This document shows positions 20,814 through 28,812 of a DNA stretch of 64,000 bases, piece by piece. The translations under genes were made by a program, and so were the position numbers. Below the pieces are notes generated by a model. It saw only the letters and a list, made by a program, of their open reading frames with translations, was not told where the DNA came from and did no database searches. The DNA is from an uncultured Gammaproteobacteria bacterium (GTDB taxonomy: Bacteria; Pseudomonadota; Gammaproteobacteria; GCA-002705445; GCA-002716945): NCBI GenBank assembly GCA_902521725.1, contig CABYTF010000001.1, forward strand, positions 254,386-318,385. The letters run 5' to 3'. Position 1 is the stretch's first letter. Each line of letters opens with the position of its first letter.

Positions 20814-21257
20814 TTGAGTATGAAAATCTCAGATAATAAGTTAGTGAGTATGACATATTCAATATATGAAGGTGATGATTTGTTAGAGAATGTAGATACA
20901 CCAGTAAGCTTTATATATGGTAAAGAAACAAACCTTTTACCAATTGTCGAAAAAGCTTTACATGGTAAAGAAAAAAATAGTGAGGTGTCTATAGAAGTTA
21001 GTTCTGAATTAGGTTTTGGAAAAATAGACGAGGGATTGATTTTTCAAGATTCACTTGAAAACGTACCCAAAGAGTACAGAAAAATTGGTATGCAAATTGA
21101 TTTTGCAAATAATAAAGGTGTAAAGAGAAAATTTAGGGTTACTAAGATGGATGATAAAAACATAACATTTGATGGTAATCACCTGTTTGCTGGGAAAGAA
21201 TTACTATACAAAATAAAAATTATTGATGTAGCTGATACTGAACTGATAGAAAATTAA
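20814..21257 (+). CDS. FKBP-type peptidyl-prolyl isomerase, SlyD/FkpB (SlpA) family
   Basis: 147 aa; collinear with SlyD/FkpB, including an insert-in-flap region and FDGNHLFAGKEL (compare SlyD VDGNHMLAGQNL); no His-rich tail. Confidence 0.7.
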   Translation: MSMKISDNKLVSMTYSIYEGDDLLENVDTPVSFIYGKETNLLPIVEKALHGKEKNSEVSIEVSSELGFGKIDEGLIFQDSLENVPKEYRKIGMQIDFANNKGVKRKFRVTKMDDKNITFDGNHLFAGKELLYKIKIIDVADTELIEN

Positions 21258-21412
21258 GTTAGATCACTTCAACATTTCCACATTGTCTAAAATAAAATCC
21301 CAATTTCCTTTGAATGATACGCTAAGAATAATTTCTTCTTTGATATTTTTTTCAATGCATTATATTATCTCTCAATTATCAACAATAAAACTTTATACGC
21401 GGGTGAACAAAT

Positions 21413-22615
21413 ATGACTAATCTGATCATGCCACATGGCTCGAATGAACTGAATACACTCTACATTGAAGATGAAATGGCAAGATCATCAATGTTATCTG
21501 CATCAGCCGAGATGCGTAGTCTTGAAATAAATTCAGCTGCAGCAGCTAATGCAGTCATGATGGCTGCTGGTTACTTCAATCCGCTGACAGGTTATATGAA
21601 TAAGGAGGAGACGCTGAAAGTATCAAAAGAGATGCTGACATTAGATGATATATTCTGGCCGGTTCCGATCGTTAATATTACAACAGACGCAAACTCACTT
21701 GACTATACGCACGGAGAGGAGATTGCTCTAAGAGACCCGAATGTTGAAGGCAATCCAGTCATTGCGATTCAAAGAATAGATAATGTAGAAAAGCTAAGTG
21801 ACGACGATATTGAAACCATTGTTAAAAATGTTTTTGCAACAACTGATGTAAATCATCCCGGTGTAAAAAATTTTAAAGATCAGGGTAAATATATTATTTC
21901 TGGATCAATTGAAGTCTTAAACTATAGTTATTTTCCGCATGATTTTCCAAATACATTTGCCACAGCTCCAGATATACGAAAGATGCTAACTGAGGCTGGC
22001 TGGTCTAAAACTGTTGCATTTCAAACCAGAAATCCAATGCACAGAGCGCACGAAGAACTTTGCAAAATGGCTTATGAAAGATTAGAAGCTGATGGAGTTC
22101 TGATTCATATGCTCTTGGGCAAACTCAAAGAAGGTGATATTCCAGGAGATGTAAGAGATGCTGCGATAAGGAAAATGGTAGAAATATATTTCGAGAAGAA
22201 TACTGCAATCATCTCTGGATTTGGATTCGACATGATGTACGCAGGTCCTCGTGAAGCTCTACTCCACGCAGTATTTAGGCAAAATGCAGGATGTACACAT
22301 TTGATAGTTGGTCGAGATCATGCTGGCGTTGGTGATTACTATGAACCATTTGAGGCGCAAGAAATATTTGATTTGGATGTTGTAAAAGATTCACTTAAAA
22401 TCGAAATTTTTAAAGCTGATCACACAGCCTACTCTAAAAAACTAAACAAAGTGGTAATGATGAGGGATGCCGAGGATCACTCCAAAGATGATTTTGTTTT
22501 ACTATCTGGGACAAAAGTGAGGGAAATGCTTGCTGCAGGTCAAGATTTACCACCAGAATTTGCTAGAAAAGAAGTAGCCAAGATATTGATGACTTACTAT
22601 CAGGAGAAAAGCTGA
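21413..22615 (+). CDS. sat: sulfate adenylyltransferase (dissimilatory-type ATP sulfurylase)
   Basis: 400 aa; QTRNPMHRAHEEL and GRDHAGVG motifs of homo-oligomeric ATP sulfurylase. Confidence 0.92.
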   Translation: MTNLIMPHGSNELNTLYIEDEMARSSMLSASAEMRSLEINSAAAANAVMMAAGYFNPLTGYMNKEETLKVSKEMLTLDDIFWPVPIVNITTDANSLDYTHGEEIALRDPNVEGNPVIAIQRIDNVEKLSDDDIETIVKNVFATTDVNHPGVKNFKDQGKYIISGSIEVLNYSYFPHDFPNTFATAPDIRKMLTEAGWSKTVAFQTRNPMHRAHEELCKMAYERLEADGVLIHMLLGKLKEGDIPGDVRDAAIRKMVEIYFEKNTAIISGFGFDMMYAGPREALLHAVFRQNAGCTHLIVGRDHAGVGDYYEPFEAQEIFDLDVVKDSLKIEIFKADHTAYSKKLNKVVMMRDAEDHSKDDFVLLSGTKVREMLAAGQDLPPEFARKEVAKILMTYYQEKS

Positions 22616-22751: not shown

Positions 22752-23543
22752 ATGCTAGCTTACAATCCATTTTCAGATTTAGGAGCAACTATACCTTCAA
22801 TTGCAATGCAGGCATTCTTAATTGCAATGGTTATGTTGGTTATAGCAGGGGTCGTGCTCGATATGATGCACAAAAAGAATGTAAAATATTTTTTCGAAAA
22901 CGCAAAAAAAGCAAAACAAGCGGCTACAAGAGAATTATCCTCCGGTGAAAAAGTATCAATAATCGCAAAGACAGTCGCATCTGACATCATGACTTCTTCG
23001 GAGTTTTGCACATTTCAAAGACGAGCAGCACATTTATTAGGGATGTATGGAACTATAATTTTCTGGGTAACATCAGCAATATTAATTTTCAGCTATTCAA
23101 CACCCTCTTCTGCAGCGCCAGCTATGGTACCTATGTTATGGCACATTGGTGCAATTATGACATGCGTGGGCGGTTTTTGGTTCTGGTTCTCAATAAGAGT
23201 TAACGTATCTGCCGAGGGACACCCTTGGTACCATGTTATGTTCGCAGATTTATTTGTACTAGCATTATTAGCATCTCAATCTACCGCACTATTGTGGTCA
23301 ATAACACAAAGCTCAGGATCTATTCTTAGCGGTTTGTTTTTGTTGTTATTCATTGTTTCAAATGTAGTTCTGTTTGGGGGAGTATATTGGTCAAAATTTG
23401 CTCATATGTTTTACAAACCTGGAGCAGCAATACAGAAACACTTAGCTAAGGCTGATGGTTCAAACAGCAATTTACCTGAACCTGCAGATAAGCCAAAGCA
23501 ATTTGGATTGGGAATAAGACGTGAGTCACCAAAGAATTATTAA
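22752..23543 (+). CDS. aprM: adenylylsulfate reductase membrane anchor
   Basis: 263 aa with ~5 TM helices; position immediately upstream of aprBA, as in sat-aprMBA loci of purple sulfur bacteria. Confidence 0.72.
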   Translation: MLAYNPFSDLGATIPSIAMQAFLIAMVMLVIAGVVLDMMHKKNVKYFFENAKKAKQAATRELSSGEKVSIIAKTVASDIMTSSEFCTFQRRAAHLLGMYGTIIFWVTSAILIFSYSTPSSAAPAMVPMLWHIGAIMTCVGGFWFWFSIRVNVSAEGHPWYHVMFADLFVLALLASQSTALLWSITQSSGSILSGLFLLLFIVSNVVLFGGVYWSKFAHMFYKPGAAIQKHLAKADGSNSNLPEPADKPKQFGLGIRRESPKNY

Positions 23544-23572: not shown

Positions 23573-24064
23573 ATGTCAACTTTTGTATATATGACCAGAT
23601 GTGATGGTTGTGGAATGTGTGTAGATATCTGTCCATCAGATATAATGCATATCGATAAAACATTGAGGCGTGCGGTTAACATAGAACCAAACATGTGTTG
23701 GGAGTGTTACTCTTGCGTGAAAGCATGTGACCAAAATGCTATCGATGCTCGTGGTTACGCTGATTTCTCACCACTGGGCCATAGCGTAAGGGCACTCAGA
23801 GAGGAAGAAAAAGGAACTATTTCTTGGAAAATTAAGTTCAGAAACGGCACAGAAAAAAATTTCTGTTCACCAATTACTACTAAACCTTGGGGAGAGTACA
23901 TTCCTGAGTTAGCAACAGAGCCATCACCAGCAAAAGATGTTTATGACGGCGAGCTACTGTACAATGAACCAAAATATCTCAAAACAGGTGAAGTGCAAAC
24001 TGCTAATGATGGTCTACCTGAAATGACAAAAATCGGTAAGCTAAAACAGGGAGTATATTACTAA
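23573..24064 (+). CDS. aprB: adenylylsulfate reductase beta subunit (2x[4Fe-4S])
   Basis: 163 aa; CDGCGMCVDICP and CWECYSCVKAC clusters with the AprB C-terminal tail. Confidence 0.9.
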   Translation: MSTFVYMTRCDGCGMCVDICPSDIMHIDKTLRRAVNIEPNMCWECYSCVKACDQNAIDARGYADFSPLGHSVRALREEEKGTISWKIKFRNGTEKNFCSPITTKPWGEYIPELATEPSPAKDVYDGELLYNEPKYLKTGEVQTANDGLPEMTKIGKLKQGVYY

Positions 24065-25917
24065 TGGCTAGAAAAACACATTATGAAGATTGCGATATTC
24101 TTGTTGTAGGCGGAGGTATGGCCGGTACAGGTGCTGCGTTTGAATCAAGATATTGGGGTAAAGACATGAAAATCATTGTGGCCGAGAAAGCTAACATTGA
24201 TAGAAGTGGTGCTGTGGCTCAAGGTCTGTATGCTATCAACTGTTACATGGGCATGCAGTGGGGTGAGAATGCTCCTGAAGATCATGTGAGATATGCGCGT
24301 AATGACCTGATGGGAATGGTCCGAGAAGATCTTGCGTATGATATGGCTCGACATGTTGACTCTGCGGTTCACATGTTTGAAGAGTGGGGTCTGCCATTGA
24401 TGCGAAATAAAGAAACAGGTCGCTATCAAAGAGAGGGCAAATGGCAAATAATGATCCACGGCGAGAGCTACAAGCCTATAGTTGCTGAAGCAGCCAAGAA
24501 ATCAGCTGATAAGATTTACAACAGAGTAATGATTACTCACTTGCTGATGGATGAAGCCAAAGAAAACAGGATAGGTGGTGCATGTGGGTTCAACATGCGT
24601 ACAGGTGAGTTCCATGTATTCCGCGCTAAAGCTGTTGTATGTGCTGCAGGTGGAGCCTCTCATATATTCAAACCTAGATCAGTTGGAGAAGGTATGGGTC
24701 GTACTTGGTATGCACCTTGGAGTAATGGCTCTGCTTATGCATTACCGATTGCTGTTGGTGCAAAGATGACCCAAATGGAAAATAGAATCGTATTGACACG
24801 TTTTAAAGATGGTTATGGTCCTGTTGGAGCTTATTTCCTCCATCTTAAAACTTATACACAGAATGCAGCAGGTGAAAACTATGAGAAAAAGTGGTACGAC
24901 AACACAAAAGCAATTGTCGGCGAGTACCTTGATCATGTTCCAACACCAACCTGTCTGAGAAACCATGCTTTCATTCAAGAGACAATACACGGAGGCGGAC
25001 CTATCCATATGGTAACTATGGAAGCATTCCAAGATCCTCACCTTGAGGAAATCGGTTGGGAAAACTTTCTAGGTATGACTGTTGGACAAGCAGTGGTTTG
25101 GGCTGCTCAAGACATTGATCCTAAATATCAAAACCCGGAACTAACAACATCAGAACCATATGTAATGGGTTCTCATGCAACATGTTCTGGAGCTTGGTGT
25201 AGTGGTCCAGAGGACTTATCTCCACCGGAGTATTTCTGGGGATACAATCGTATGATGACTATTGATGGATTATTTGCTGCTGGTGATGCCGCAGGTGGAA
25301 CCGCACACGCATTCTCCTCAGGCTCATTTACTGAGGGTAGATTATGCGCCAAAGCAGCGGTCAAATACATTAAAGATCAAAAAGCTGTTGGAATCAGAGT
25401 TTCCGATAGCCAAATCGAAAAATACAAAGAGGAAGTTTATAAACCTCTTGAAAACTATACCGTTGGACGTAACGAGATAACAGCAGGTACAGTATCACCA
25501 AGTTATCTACTTCCAATTCAGGGTCTTCAGCGTCTGCAGAAGATTATGGATGACTACGCGGGAGGTATAGGAACAAACTATATGACTAACGGTAATATGC
25601 TCAAAAGAGGTCTTCAGTTACTCGATACACTTACTGAAGATTTAGAGAAAATTGGTGCAGAGGATTATCATCAGTTAATGAGAGCATGGGAGCTTAAACA
25701 TAGAACTTTAGTCTCTCAATGTGTTTGTGAACATACATTATTCCGTGAAGAAACACGTTGGCCTGGTTATTACTATCGTGGTGATTTTTTAAAGCTTGAT
25801 GACGATAACTGGCATTGTCTAACAGTCTCAAGAAGAGATCCTGAAACAGGTAAATTCACTTGTGAAAAAGCTCCTCTATATCATATCGTTGACGAAGAGA
25901 CAGAAAAAGTTTCTTGA
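24064..25917 (+). CDS. aprA: adenylylsulfate reductase alpha subunit (FAD)
   Basis: 617 aa; VVGGGMAGTGAA FAD fold; fumarate-reductase-like flavoprotein architecture; start overlaps the aprB stop. Confidence 0.93.
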   Translation: MARKTHYEDCDILVVGGGMAGTGAAFESRYWGKDMKIIVAEKANIDRSGAVAQGLYAINCYMGMQWGENAPEDHVRYARNDLMGMVREDLAYDMARHVDSAVHMFEEWGLPLMRNKETGRYQREGKWQIMIHGESYKPIVAEAAKKSADKIYNRVMITHLLMDEAKENRIGGACGFNMRTGEFHVFRAKAVVCAAGGASHIFKPRSVGEGMGRTWYAPWSNGSAYALPIAVGAKMTQMENRIVLTRFKDGYGPVGAYFLHLKTYTQNAAGENYEKKWYDNTKAIVGEYLDHVPTPTCLRNHAFIQETIHGGGPIHMVTMEAFQDPHLEEIGWENFLGMTVGQAVVWAAQDIDPKYQNPELTTSEPYVMGSHATCSGAWCSGPEDLSPPEYFWGYNRMMTIDGLFAAGDAAGGTAHAFSSGSFTEGRLCAKAAVKYIKDQKAVGIRVSDSQIEKYKEEVYKPLENYTVGRNEITAGTVSPSYLLPIQGLQRLQKIMDDYAGGIGTNYMTNGNMLKRGLQLLDTLTEDLEKIGAEDYHQLMRAWELKHRTLVSQCVCEHTLFREETRWPGYYYRGDFLKLDDDNWHCLTVSRRDPETGKFTCEKAPLYHIVDEETEKVS

Positions 25918-25919
25918 TA

Positions 25920-26273
25920 ATGACACAGCTATTGGAGCTATCTGATCAAGAAATTATTGATATTGCTAACCCGTTGTGGGAAGACTTAATTAGGACTTCT
26001 AATAACAAAGACTACGGCGGGTTTACCAAGAATTTCTCAAAAAAAATGCTTATGGGTGCGGATGAGGTAACTCTCGGTAAACAATGGGCTAATAGCCCAA
26101 TATTAGCTAAATTATCACCTGATTTCGAAGCATTAGGTTGTCTAAAAAGAGATGAGTACGTCACTGTAATTTTCAAACAGGTCAGTGAATCTGTACCTGG
26201 TGAATATTTGGGAAGATTGGTATTAGGCGTCCAAGATGATGATGTTAAGATATATGGATGTACAATCTTTTAA
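25920..26273 (+). CDS. hypothetical protein, translationally coupled to aprA
   Basis: 117 aa from the ATG 2 nt after the aprA stop (the track uses a TTG at 25914); no motif I can recognise. Confidence 0.5.
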   Translation: MTQLLELSDQEIIDIANPLWEDLIRTSNNKDYGGFTKNFSKKMLMGADEVTLGKQWANSPILAKLSPDFEALGCLKRDEYVTVIFKQVSESVPGEYLGRLVLGVQDDDVKIYGCTIF

Positions 26274-26279
26274 CTCTTG

Positions 26280-26798
26280 ATGCATGACATAAGAAAAATC
26301 ACGGTTATTTCTGATACGCACGGAGTCATCGATGATCAAATAATCCCAGTGTTGAATGATTCAGATATGATTGTCCATGCTGGAGATATCATGAGCACAT
26401 CTATCATCAAAAAACTTAAGACGTATTCTAGGAGGGTTGTCGCTGTTGCAGGTAACAATGATTTACCTGAAAGATATTCAGATGAAGAGGATAAAAAAAT
26501 TATCTCTGAGTTAAAAAAAGTAGAGCAGTTTTCAATCAACAACGAACTTGTCACAGTCGAGCATGGTGACAGATTTGGTCATCACCCACCGCATGCTGAT
26601 TTAAGAGCCGCTTACCCTGATTCAAAGTTGATTATTTATGGGCACACACATAACCAAGTGTGTGATAAGAGCAAGAGCCCATGGGTTGTAAATCCAGGCG
26701 CTGCAGGACACACTAGGAATAATGATGGCGGCCCGTGCTACATGCAAATATTGATTGATAATGACAAATGGGAAATTAAATCTCATTGCATAAAATAA
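26280..26798 (+). CDS. metallophosphoesterase, YfcE/MJ0936 family
   Basis: 172 aa; SDTHG, GDI, GNND and GHTH calcineurin-like motifs; collinear with E. coli YfcE. Confidence 0.8.
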   Translation: MHDIRKITVISDTHGVIDDQIIPVLNDSDMIVHAGDIMSTSIIKKLKTYSRRVVAVAGNNDLPERYSDEEDKKIISELKKVEQFSINNELVTVEHGDRFGHHPPHADLRAAYPDSKLIIYGHTHNQVCDKSKSPWVVNPGAAGHTRNNDGGPCYMQILIDNDKWEIKSHCIK

Positions 26799-27730
26799 TG
26801 AATGACAAGGTCCTCACTATTTTCGGTGGTTCAGGATTCATAGCATCTGAACTGGTTTACAAACTTTCTGATCACTTTAAGGAAATTAGAGTGCTATCTC
26901 GTAATATCGAAAAATGCAAACAAATTAAAGTGATTAAGAATGTTGACTTATTTTTGTATGATCCATCAAATGCAAGCTCATTCACTCGATTCTTAAAAGA
27001 TAGTCACGTTGTTATTAACACTGTAGGTATTTTGAATGAGTCTAGAAAAATGACTTTTGATGATGTTCATTTTAATTTTGTAAAAACCTTAGTGAGTAAA
27101 TCTAGAGAAAATAATGTAGCAAAGTTCATCCAATTAAGTGCTCTAAACGCAGATATGAATGCGCCAAGCAAGTATTTACAATCAAAAGGTAAGGCAGACG
27201 ACTACATATCCTCTAATAATGATACAAAATTCAAGACTGTGGTGTTTAGACCATCAATTGTTTTTGGTGAACGCGACAGTTTTTTCAACAGATTTAATCG
27301 TTTACTTAAATATATTCCTATTTTCCCTCTAGCATGTCCTAAATCCTTATTTTCTCCAATTTACGTGAAGGACTTGTCAAACTTTGTGGTCGAATCAATC
27401 TTGACAAATAAGTATGATAATCAGGTTAATAATGTGACTGGCCCAAAAAATTACAGTTTTCTTGAACTAATTAATTTTATACTGAAAGTTAAAAATACTA
27501 AGCGTATTATTATTCCACTAAACTATACGCTGTCTTATTTGCAAGCATTCGGATTTACCTATCTTGTTCCAGGTAATATTTTTACACTTGATAACCTTAA
27601 ATCTCTTCAAATTGACAACATAAGTTCTGATGGCCTTAAAGGTAAGACTACCATTGATGAGATAGTTCCATCGTATTTATCTAAAAAAAATAATAAACTT
27701 GATACTTATAGAAAAAACGCAGGCAGATAA
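26798..27730 (+). CDS. NAD(P)-binding atypical SDR, NDUFA9-like (complex I 39-kDa subunit-like) family
   Basis: GGSGFIASE Rossmann motif; LSALNADxNAPSKYLQSK, RPSIVFGERDSFFNRF and IFPL...PIYVKD blocks parallel the NDUFA9-like family. Start taken at ATG 26798 (TAATG overlap); track alternative is 26786. Confidence 0.68.
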   Translation: MNDKVLTIFGGSGFIASELVYKLSDHFKEIRVLSRNIEKCKQIKVIKNVDLFLYDPSNASSFTRFLKDSHVVINTVGILNESRKMTFDDVHFNFVKTLVSKSRENNVAKFIQLSALNADMNAPSKYLQSKGKADDYISSNNDTKFKTVVFRPSIVFGERDSFFNRFNRLLKYIPIFPLACPKSLFSPIYVKDLSNFVVESILTNKYDNQVNNVTGPKNYSFLELINFILKVKNTKRIIIPLNYTLSYLQAFGFTYLVPGNIFTLDNLKSLQIDNISSDGLKGKTTIDEIVPSYLSKKNNKLDTYRKNAGR

Positions 27731-28812
27731 TGAAGACTTACCTGGTAGGTGGTGCAATACGTGACAGATTACTTGGTTTTAAACCTAAGGAAAGAGATTG
27801 GGTTGTTGTAGGTTCATCACCTCAGGAAATGAAATCTAAAGGCTTTAGACAGGTTGGAAAAGATTTTCCTGTGTTTATTCATCCTCAGACGGGAGAAGAA
27901 TATGCGCTTGCAAGGACAGAAAGAAAATCTGGACATGGTTACTCTGGTTTTGAGTTCGACATTAATTCAAATGTTACTTTAGAAGAAGATTTGGAGAGAA
28001 GGGACCTTACCATTAATGCGATAGCGGAGGATGAACATGGAAACCTTATAGACCCATTTGATGGACAAAAGGACATTGAAAATAAAAAATTAAGACACGT
28101 ATCAGATGCATTTTCAGAGGATCCCCTCAGAGTTTTAAGACTAGCAAGATTTAAGGTGAGATATGATGACTTTGAAATAGTACCAGAGACTCTGGATAAA
28201 GTTACAGAAATAATAGGGAGTTCTGAGTTAGATCATTTAACTGGTGAGAGAGTTTGGCTAGAAATGTACAAATCTGACAATCCATGGTTGTTCAGAAAAG
28301 AGCTCACTCATCTGGGTGCTGATAATGTTCTTTATATCGACTCAAAAAAAAGTGATGGGATCTGTTTATCTCCGAATATGAAAAACAAACTGCATATGAT
28401 TTCATGTTTTATTCATGAAGAGGTATCTAATATTGATGAATTTTGTCTAAAGTTAAAAATACCAAATGAATACAAAGACCTTGCAAATTTACTAAATCAA
28501 TCTAAAGCTAGTATAGAAGAATATGAGCCAGTTACAGATAGCTATGAACAGCTTATTGGCATTGTAAAAGAACTTGACATAAGAAAAAAAGATAGACTTA
28601 AAAACTTTTTTGAAGTGTACACCAATGATGGAAATAAGGATAAGGTTGACTTTTTTCAATCATTCATAGAAAAATTAGATCAATTCAGACTAAAAGAGGA
28701 GGACCGTAAAAAGACAAACGATGAGATCAAAAAAGTTATTGAACATTCCTATAGAATACTTGCACAAGATCACATTAGAGAGTACTTAGATAATCAGCAA
28801 AATAGATCCTAA
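27730..28812 (+). CDS. cca: tRNA nucleotidyltransferase (CCA-adding enzyme), HD domain degenerate
   Basis: 360 aa; GGAIRDxLLG head-domain motif plus RDLTINA. The region where the HD motif would sit shows no His-Asp pair. Confidence 0.85.
   Translation: MKTYLVGGAIRDRLLGFKPKERDWVVVGSSPQEMKSKGFRQVGKDFPVFIHPQTGEEYALARTERKSGHGYSGFEFDINSNVTLEEDLERRDLTINAIAEDEHGNLIDPFDGQKDIENKKLRHVSDAFSEDPLRVLRLARFKVRYDDFEIVPETLDKVTEIIGSSELDHLTGERVWLEMYKSDNPWLFRKELTHLGADNVLYIDSKKSDGICLSPNMKNKLHMISCFIHEEVSNIDEFCLKLKIPNEYKDLANLLNQSKASIEEYEPVTDSYEQLIGIVKELDIRKKDRLKNFFEVYTNDGNKDKVDFFQSFIEKLDQFRLKEEDRKKTNDEIKKVIEHSYRILAQDHIREYLDNQQNRS

Follow-up and report, generated by a model that had tools for sequence, protein, structure and literature searches.

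A conserved gene for a predicted NTF2-like protein follows aprMBA in SAR11 and low-GC marine Gammaproteobacteria

Introduction

The 64,000-nucleotide stretch of contig CABYTF010000001.1 analysed here (the window) carries the gene for ATP sulfurylase (sat) and the genes aprM, aprB and aprA for an AprM-type adenylylsulfate (APS) reductase. Directly downstream of aprA, at 25920–26273, lies an open reading frame (ORF) that we call gene X (Table 1). We found that X is a real, strongly conserved protein-coding gene and that the module aprM-aprB-aprA-X is common to SAR11, Ca. Thioglobus (SUP05/ARCTIC96BD-19-type) and other low-GC marine Gammaproteobacteria. The combination of aprMBA with a fixed fourth gene for a predicted NTF2-like protein is undescribed in the databases and literature that we searched.

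Gene X is conserved and protein coding

A first-pass annotation of the window had placed the ORF two nucleotides after the aprA stop, in the same orientation, and these coordinates were confirmed. In seven relatives with X proteins of 91–97% amino-acid identity, the ratio of nonsynonymous to synonymous substitutions (dN/dS), calculated by the Nei–Gojobori method (NG86), was 0.017–0.031, with dS running from 0.46 to saturation. Over 362 pairs with 0.1 < dS < 1.5 the median dN/dS was 0.097 and the maximum 0.29; for comparison, AprA gave 0.005–0.012. A word-indexed search returned 137 homologues, all 116–119 amino acids long, and a family-profile search returned 2,213. Among 1.84 billion cluster representatives searched exhaustively with HMMER, 307 clusters matched at E ≤ 1e-3, and the exact window sequence of X is already on record in a 449-member cluster. 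Forty-one residues of the protein are invariant across 11 sequences of 53–91% identity.

We also considered that the ORF might be a chance open frame in the 3′ untranslated region, as a canonical Shine–Dalgarno sequence is missing directly upstream of its ATG. This explanation is refuted by the purifying selection on X (dN/dS of 0.02–0.10), by a length that stays within 116–119 amino acids in more than 2,200 homologues and by the confident structure prediction described below, and we give it virtually no chance of being right. The start codon is also supported by comparison. An in-frame TTG at 25914 would extend the product to 119 amino acids, but it is the ATG, not the TTG, that is conserved, and close relatives have a spacer of 8–10 nucleotides with an in-frame stop just upstream of the ATG; we therefore take the ATG at 25920 as the start of X.

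Every member of the X family carries the database name 'hypothetical protein'. The X protein matched no Pfam family at E values up to 1 and no NCBIfam model. When 24 diverse family members were scanned against Pfam, three touched DUF3887 below threshold (best E = 3e-3), and the remaining hits were scattered noise. The family profile found nothing better than E = 0.45 among PDB sequences. A literature search, of incomplete coverage and hence no proof of absence, turned up no paper describing X or a fourth apr-cluster gene in these organisms, and the supplementary tables of a Pelagibacter sulfur-limitation paper do not list the apr genes. The first-pass remark that no such factor had been described is thus borne out by these searches.

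X has a fixed place downstream of aprMBA

The genome scan used the apr-linked sub-alignment A4, so that the genome set is biased toward the apr-linked clade, and linkage was counted in the best 80 of at least 566 matched species genomes. By label, these 80 comprise 26 Gammaproteobacteria, 51 Pelagibacterales/Alphaproteobacteria and three unassigned genomes. A tblastn search of the loci with the window proteins placed aprM-aprB-aprA immediately upstream of X, in the same orientation, in every one of the 80. For the converse test, 80 metagenome loci were picked by AprA alone, at 83–99% identity to the window AprA. X lay directly downstream in every one of the 74 loci that extend at least 480 nucleotides past aprA, and the 5′ part of X was visible in five of the six truncated loci. 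All sampled AprA proteins are at least 83% identical to that of the window, a range that leaves the AprM-type clusters of Chromatiaceae and Thiobacillus outside the sample.

Within this range X holds a fixed place in the apr cluster across lineages, and it was neither absent nor disrupted in any sampled relative that retains aprMBA. The first-pass annotation had proposed to check whether homologues always lie downstream of aprA, and this test was passed in both directions. It had framed the check for sulfur-oxidising Gammaproteobacteria and named X a candidate factor of the Sat/Apr pathway. On both points the data differ: about two-thirds of the genome matches come from SAR11/Pelagibacterales, heterotrophs without a linked sat, and X is linked to aprMBA, not to Sat.

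The distance from the aprA stop to the X start had a median of 16 nucleotides over 157 loci. It was at most 35 nucleotides in 140 of them, and the two genes overlapped by 4 or 14 nucleotides in eight. Spacers of about 91–117 nucleotides were found in Ca. Thioglobus-type loci and one of 384 nucleotides in a single locus. Pairwise protein distances of X and AprA correlated with r = 0.87 across 83 loci, which argues that the two genes have been inherited and transferred together.

In one 167-residue metagenomic fragment (P0123), the C terminus of AprA reads through into X in the same frame, apparently with Gln in place of the stop; because the sequence stands alone and may be an error, it was not counted as a fusion. 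Longer 'fusion-like' homologues (P0122, P0124–P0137, P0153, P0199 and P0271) were discounted, as their extensions are unrelated or duplicated and look like assembly or gene-call chimeras.

X is predicted to adopt an NTF2-like fold

X is an acidic protein (isoelectric point 4.55) with no histidine and two cysteines, C74 and C114. Its maximum Kyte–Doolittle hydropathy is only 0.57 in a 19-residue window, so we assign it neither a transmembrane segment nor a signal peptide, in agreement with the first-pass annotation. C74 is kept in 88 of 92 apr-linked sequences and C114 in eight of 92, all in the window clade; the earlier statement that X has no cysteine pair therefore holds in terms of conservation, as only C74 is conserved in the apr-linked clade. 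Thr or Ala replaces C74 in four loci in which X still follows aprMBA (L087–L089 and L091), and also in P0011.

An AlphaFold2 model built on a 91-sequence alignment reached a predicted local distance difference test score (pLDDT) of 94.5 and a predicted template-modelling score (pTM) of 0.88. The model has helices at residues 9–28, 32–35, 41–45 and 49–58 and strands at 65–77, 80–89, 95–105 and 108–116. The N-terminal helices are predicted to pack into a strongly curved antiparallel β-sheet, as is characteristic of NTF2-like proteins, and we are confident in predicting a four-stranded NTF2-like α+β cone. At the sequence level X matched no curated NTF2-clan family (SnoaL, DUF4440, DUF3887 and others). 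X thus belongs to the NTF2-like superfamily by its predicted structure and to none of its curated sequence families, and the earlier picture of a featureless protein gives way to one with a confidently predicted fold.

All subfamilies of the family share only core residues, namely A16, W20, F35, S89, G94, L97, L100 and L102. In the apr-linked clade (92 sequences), S27, N28, Y32, Q55, W56, G73, R77, Q87, R99, G103, K110, G113 and T115 are invariant. A further comparison identified 22 positions that are at least 90% conserved in this clade and differ in each of the two paralogous clades used for comparison, among them S66, G73, C74, R99, V101, G103, Y112 and I116, G34 and T36 of the DYGGFT loop, and G46/A47. 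With hairpin registers taken from the predicted strands, we infer that nine of the 11 sheet-located clade-specific positions (S66, C74, R99, V101, G103, Q105, Y112, C114 and I116) would lie on one face of the sheet, a pattern that fits a clade-specific binding surface. Both sheet faces have hydrophobic centres; the helices would cover one, and the other would pack against a further X molecule or a partner protein. Mean-field direct-coupling analysis of which face packs on the helices (522 sequences; effective number, Neff, 99) gave phylogeny-dominated noise and was discarded.

NTF2-fold enzymes such as ketosteroid isomerase, scytalone dehydratase, SnoaL and limonene epoxide hydrolase carry conserved Asp, Tyr or His residues inside the cone. 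Possible acid/base residues of X are Y32, which is invariant, E49, which does not vary among the 11 aligned sequences, and D31, which hardly varies in the apr-linked clade. X could be read as a small-molecule-binding or catalytic NTF2-like pathway protein rather than a structural partner, for example one that binds or hands over sulfite, AMP/APS or quinone, possibly via the conserved C74 and the invariant R77/R99/K110/Q87. The invariance of the basic and polar residues in the apr-linked clade and the near-invariance of C74 point in this direction, as does the position of the SAR11 module beside the sulfite-producing suyAB and xsc and the exporter gene tauE. Nevertheless, we consider this reading somewhat unlikely, as C74 is replaced in four aprMBA-bearing loci and P0011, no histidine and no residue pattern assignable to catalysis are found in X, and minimal four-stranded cones as small as this one (117 residues) often have a filled cavity. 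X also has no known sulfur-carrier motif. The sulfur carriers TusA, DsrE, DsrC and rhodanese have folds of their own and a strictly conserved active-site cysteine, whereas X is predicted to be NTF2-like and its C74 is not strictly conserved, and it does not belong among them.

The apr-linked proteins are one clade of a larger family

Relatives of X at 24–40% identity form separate subfamilies in unrelated contexts, which makes the apr-linked proteins a specialised branch within a broader family of small proteins. A place downstream of aprA, which the first-pass annotation had proposed to check for homologues in general, is not shared by these more distant members. In Thalassomonas, one subfamily stands alone between genes for a LysR regulator and a GNAT acetyltransferase, and the same subfamily occurs among small ORFs in a Saccharospirillaceae metagenome-assembled genome (MAG) and a cyanobacterial MAG. 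A second subfamily overlaps the stop of a resistance–nodulation–division (RND) efflux pump gene by 4 nucleotides on three contigs, and one distant paralogue overlaps the stop of a PNPOx-like flavoprotein gene, again by 4 nucleotides, on one contig. Elsewhere in the family, too, a clade may thus have a particular upstream gene as its partner. One paralogue adjoins restriction-modification genes, and P0212 has an N-terminal signal-like extension. The P0162/P0186 subfamily, at 36–43% identity, showed no apr linkage on the one contig that represents it, which has 121 nucleotides of non-coding sequence upstream and no aprA.

The window locus and its packing

The features of the locus are collected in Table 1. 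Relatives of the window aprA at 82–91% identity carry the FAD_binding_2 and Succ_DH_flav_C domains. The AprM-like protein matches QmoC weakly, though significantly, over the membrane half (NCBIfam NF038018, E = 1.4e-8, profile positions 148–355 of 360), in contrast to the report that AprM has no similarity to known domains (PMC3779200); it also matches TcuB. Directly upstream of sat, on the plus strand, a 147-residue ORF with a TTG start (20814–21257) has only a sub-threshold match to FKBP_C (E = 0.024).

Table 1. Coordinates of gene X, its neighbours in the window and its distant paralogues (rows with L numbers refer to positions in those loci).
Feature	Coordinates	Strand	Basis or remark
Gene X, 117-aa soluble acidic protein with predicted NTF2-like fold	25920..26273	+	ATG 25920, TAA 26271-26273
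aprA stop / X start junction TGA-TA-ATG, 2-nt spacer	25915..25922	+	sequence
aprA, FAD-containing alpha subunit of APS reductase	24064..25917 (TGA 25915-25917)	+	exact sequence in a cluster with members named 'adenylylsulfate reductase subunit A'
aprB, iron-sulfur beta subunit of APS reductase	23573..24064	+	85% identity to an L007 gene with Fer4 + APS-reductase_C
aprM-like membrane anchor	22752..23543	+	precedes aprBA in 80/80 genome loci; weak QmoC match
sat (ATP sulfurylase)	21413..22615	+	66% identity to an L007 gene with PUA_2 + ATP-sulfurylase domains
YfcE-family metallophosphoesterase	26277..26798	+	Pfam Metallophos_2 E = 1.7e-27; TIGR00040 yfcE E = 1.8e-24
Epimerase/NmrA-like gene	26786..27730	+	ORF list
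CCA-adding enzyme gene	27730..28812	+	ORF list
Best sigma-70-like promoter match, upstream of sat	21340..21368	+	10/12 consensus positions
Distant X paralogues, 24-36% identity, overlapping upstream gene	L012 and L013 6001-6354; L176 3677-4030; L177 864-1208		

The plus strand is nearly without intergenic space from about 20.8 to 28.8 kb, and the genes from sat to that for the CCA-adding enzyme are packed with gaps of 0–4 nucleotides or overlaps. The YfcE-type gene starts 3 nucleotides past the X stop, and overlaps at 26786–26798 and 27730 join the phosphoesterase, epimerase-like and CCA-adding enzyme genes. Because unrelated neighbours in this genome are equally packed, the tight aprA/X spacing alone is weak evidence of a functional tie. 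This qualifies the first-pass argument that X has no room for its own promoter. The promoter match upstream of sat may start a sat-aprMBA-X transcript, in which case X would be transcribed with aprA; the match is weak, since promoter-like sites in this region are no commoner than in shuffled sequence. No terminator-like site was found on the plus strand between 20600 and 29000, and hence none after aprA or X, and no Rfam RNA family was found in the window.

The window has a low GC content, about 30–45%. Its closest loci come from MAGs and single-amplified genomes labelled Gammaproteobacteria, such as 'Ectothiorhodospiraceae bacterium CM1_5m.P53' and AG-390-N19; they are 91–97% identical to it in X and 98–100% in AprA, and keep the order sat-aprMBA-X-phosphoesterase-epimerase. 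The source of the window is thus a low-GC marine gammaproteobacterium. X orthologues of Pelagibacteraceae and Ca. Thioglobus are 54–66% identical to the window X.

Neighbourhoods of the module

X stays linked to aprMBA in two bacterial classes and in no fewer than four different downstream neighbourhoods, while the other neighbours change. This bears on the idea that X is unrelated to APS reductase and has merely hitch-hiked beside aprA through the tight packing of streamlined genomes and block transfer. Packing of this kind is evident in the window, where the genes for the phosphoesterase, the epimerase-like protein and the CCA-adding enzyme stand just as close together despite their unrelated functions, and X paralogues do occur in unrelated contexts. 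We nonetheless judge hitch-hiking to be very unlikely, given the linkage in 80 of 80 and 74 of 74 loci with other neighbours changing, the strong purifying selection on X and the confinement of its clade-specific conserved residues to the apr-linked subfamily.

The sat gene lies upstream in gammaproteobacterial loci only and was found within 5 kb upstream of the module in no SAR11 locus. The YfcE phosphoesterase gene adjoins X in most gammaproteobacterial loci and is missing from all SAR11 loci; its occurrence largely follows that of sat. It is on the same strand as X in the window clade and on the opposite strand in Ca. Thioglobus; loci with the opposite orientation are L052, L054, L074, L076, L079, L081, L082 and L093. 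The phosphoesterase could act with APS, AMP or pyrophosphate.

In SAR11, tauE, suyAB and xsc, genes for organosulfonate desulfonation and sulfite export, lie downstream of X. The order is aprMBA-X-tauE-(YeiH-like gene, HIT-family gene)-suyAB-xsc in L005 (6392–12341) and similar in L014, L023, L031, L042 and many other loci; APS reductase thus adjoins a sulfite exporter and desulfonation genes whose products release sulfite. In these SAR11 loci, which have no sat linked to AprBA, APS could be removed by the product of the HIT-family gene (L005 8628–9023).

In some Gammaproteobacteria, a gene for a CbbQ/NorQ-type AAA+ (MoxR) protein follows X or the phosphoesterase gene (L001–L004, at 7036–7848 in L001, and L032, L055, L068, L070, L095 and L166). 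Proteins of this family are known to activate enzymes or to aid cofactor insertion. Its presence, directly after X or past the phosphoesterase, together with the conserved linkage of X to aprA, would suit a transient chaperone for maturation or assembly of AprBA (loading of FAD or Fe–S clusters, or membrane docking) that stays outside the mature complex. We regard such a role for X as quite unlikely: Pfam, NCBIfam and PDB searches showed no similarity of X to known flavoprotein or Fe–S assembly factors, and CbbQ is missing from the window and from the SAR11 loci. The available data cannot separate it from the role that we favour, which is set out below.

Discussion

We tentatively favour a non-catalytic role for X, as an accessory or adaptor of the AprM-type APS reductase, and hold this reading to be a little short of an even bet. 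It is favoured because the linkage is invariant, X and AprA are co-inherited, X has no catalytic or cofactor signature, the clade-specific residues appear to lie on the surface, and there are precedents for NTF2-fold subunits and adaptors. Other NTF2-fold modules serve as structural small subunits or membrane-proximal adaptors. In the proposed mechanism, X would be co-produced with AprA and attach to AprBA, or form a bridge between AprBA and AprM, and in this way would stabilise, assemble or dock a membrane-associated APS reductase complex. The complex would oxidise sulfite and AMP to APS, with the electrons passed to the membrane. The first-pass suggestion of an accessory factor, assembly factor or small subunit has thus passed the comparative linkage test as far as Apr is concerned; the role itself is suggested by conserved gene order.

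A stronger version would make X a stoichiometric fourth subunit of the membrane-bound AprM-type enzyme in the ocean's most abundant bacteria. Without X, AprBA would not be coupled to AprM and the quinone pool, or AprA would not be supplied with the sulfite that desulfonating enzymes release. We think this unlikely.

Several points weigh against an accessory role. NTF2-like cones are equally often small-molecule pockets or enzymes, and the invariant polar and basic residues S27, N28, Y32, Q55, W56, R77, Q87, R99, K110 and T115 could line an anion or ligand pocket instead of an interface. Paralogues in unrelated contexts mean that the fold itself is not Apr-specific. The sampled AprA proteins covered only identities of 83% or more to that of the window. 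Outside that sample, the cluster of Allochromatium vinosum has been described as sat-aprMBA (Alvin_1118–1121), with no further member mentioned (PMC3779200, PMC3368242), and X may therefore be dispensable for the AprM-type enzyme in general. The locus tag after its aprA (Alvin_1121), Alvin_1122, is a 'conserved hypothetical protein' that is down-regulated on pyrite (PMC11267869); it is a possible homologue of X.

Comparison with known systems helps to place X. The known membrane partners of AprBA are AprM and QmoABC (PMC2211403, PMC3333476, PMC3779200). They are encoded in the apr cluster and their presence tracks the AprBA lineage (PMC2211403, PMC3333476), and X is likewise fixed there and lineage-correlated. 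Unlike these partners, X looks soluble and lacks cofactor motifs; it shares neither sequence nor predicted fold with them, and it occurs alongside AprM rather than replacing it. With no Pfam or NCBIfam match, X shows no homology to a described APS reductase component (AprA, AprB, AprM or QmoABC).

Closest to X in behaviour are the β-subunits of Rieske dioxygenases, which have the NTF2 fold and are small, structural and encoded downstream of the catalytic subunit. The likeness is an analogy of fold and gene order and does not make X a member of that family: X has no Ring_hydroxyl_B Pfam match, and its upstream gene, aprA, encodes an enzyme of another class, a fumarate-reductase-type flavoprotein. 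Tim44 (C-terminal domain), VirB8/TraM/DotI/IcmL and the CaMKII hub are NTF2-like adaptors of unrelated systems that are mostly membrane-anchored or part of larger proteins, whereas X is free-standing and would be cytoplasmic. Among NTF2-like proteins of unknown function with a 'cystatin-like/SnoaL-like' fold (PDB 2rgq and 3gzr, SgcJ 4i4k/4ovm and DUF4783 4q53), none shares more than 18% sequence identity with X and none, unlike X, is linked to APS reductase. The qmoABC operon of Desulfovibrio vulgaris contains a promoter-distal hypothetical gene (Zane et al. 2010, as cited in PMC3333476) that, like X, is small, uncharacterised and distal in a cluster serving APS reductase. That gene belongs to a sulfate reducer with a Qmo-type system; it is likened to X by this description only, and no homology is claimed.

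AprBA is among the most abundant sulfur-cycle enzymes in surface-ocean bacteria. To our knowledge, no AprM-type APS reductase has been purified as a membrane complex. How electrons pass from AprM-type enzymes to the membrane is unexplained (PMC2211403, PMC3779200), and the role of AprBA in SAR11, which lacks sulfate assimilation, is a hypothesis only, namely sulfite detoxification (PMC5069961). X accompanies aprMBA without exception in the sampled loci, which makes it an obvious candidate for a missing piece and an experimental handle on the membrane enzyme. It could prove a modest helper, and should it be no more than a pocket protein that forms homodimers and plays a side role, the outcome would be a useful annotation with no conceptual change. 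Annotation pipelines now apply the label 'hypothetical' to this family, which comprises more than 2,200 cluster representatives. If X is a fourth subunit, the functional enzyme of SAR11 and SUP05-type bacteria would be AprMBA-X, not AprMBA.
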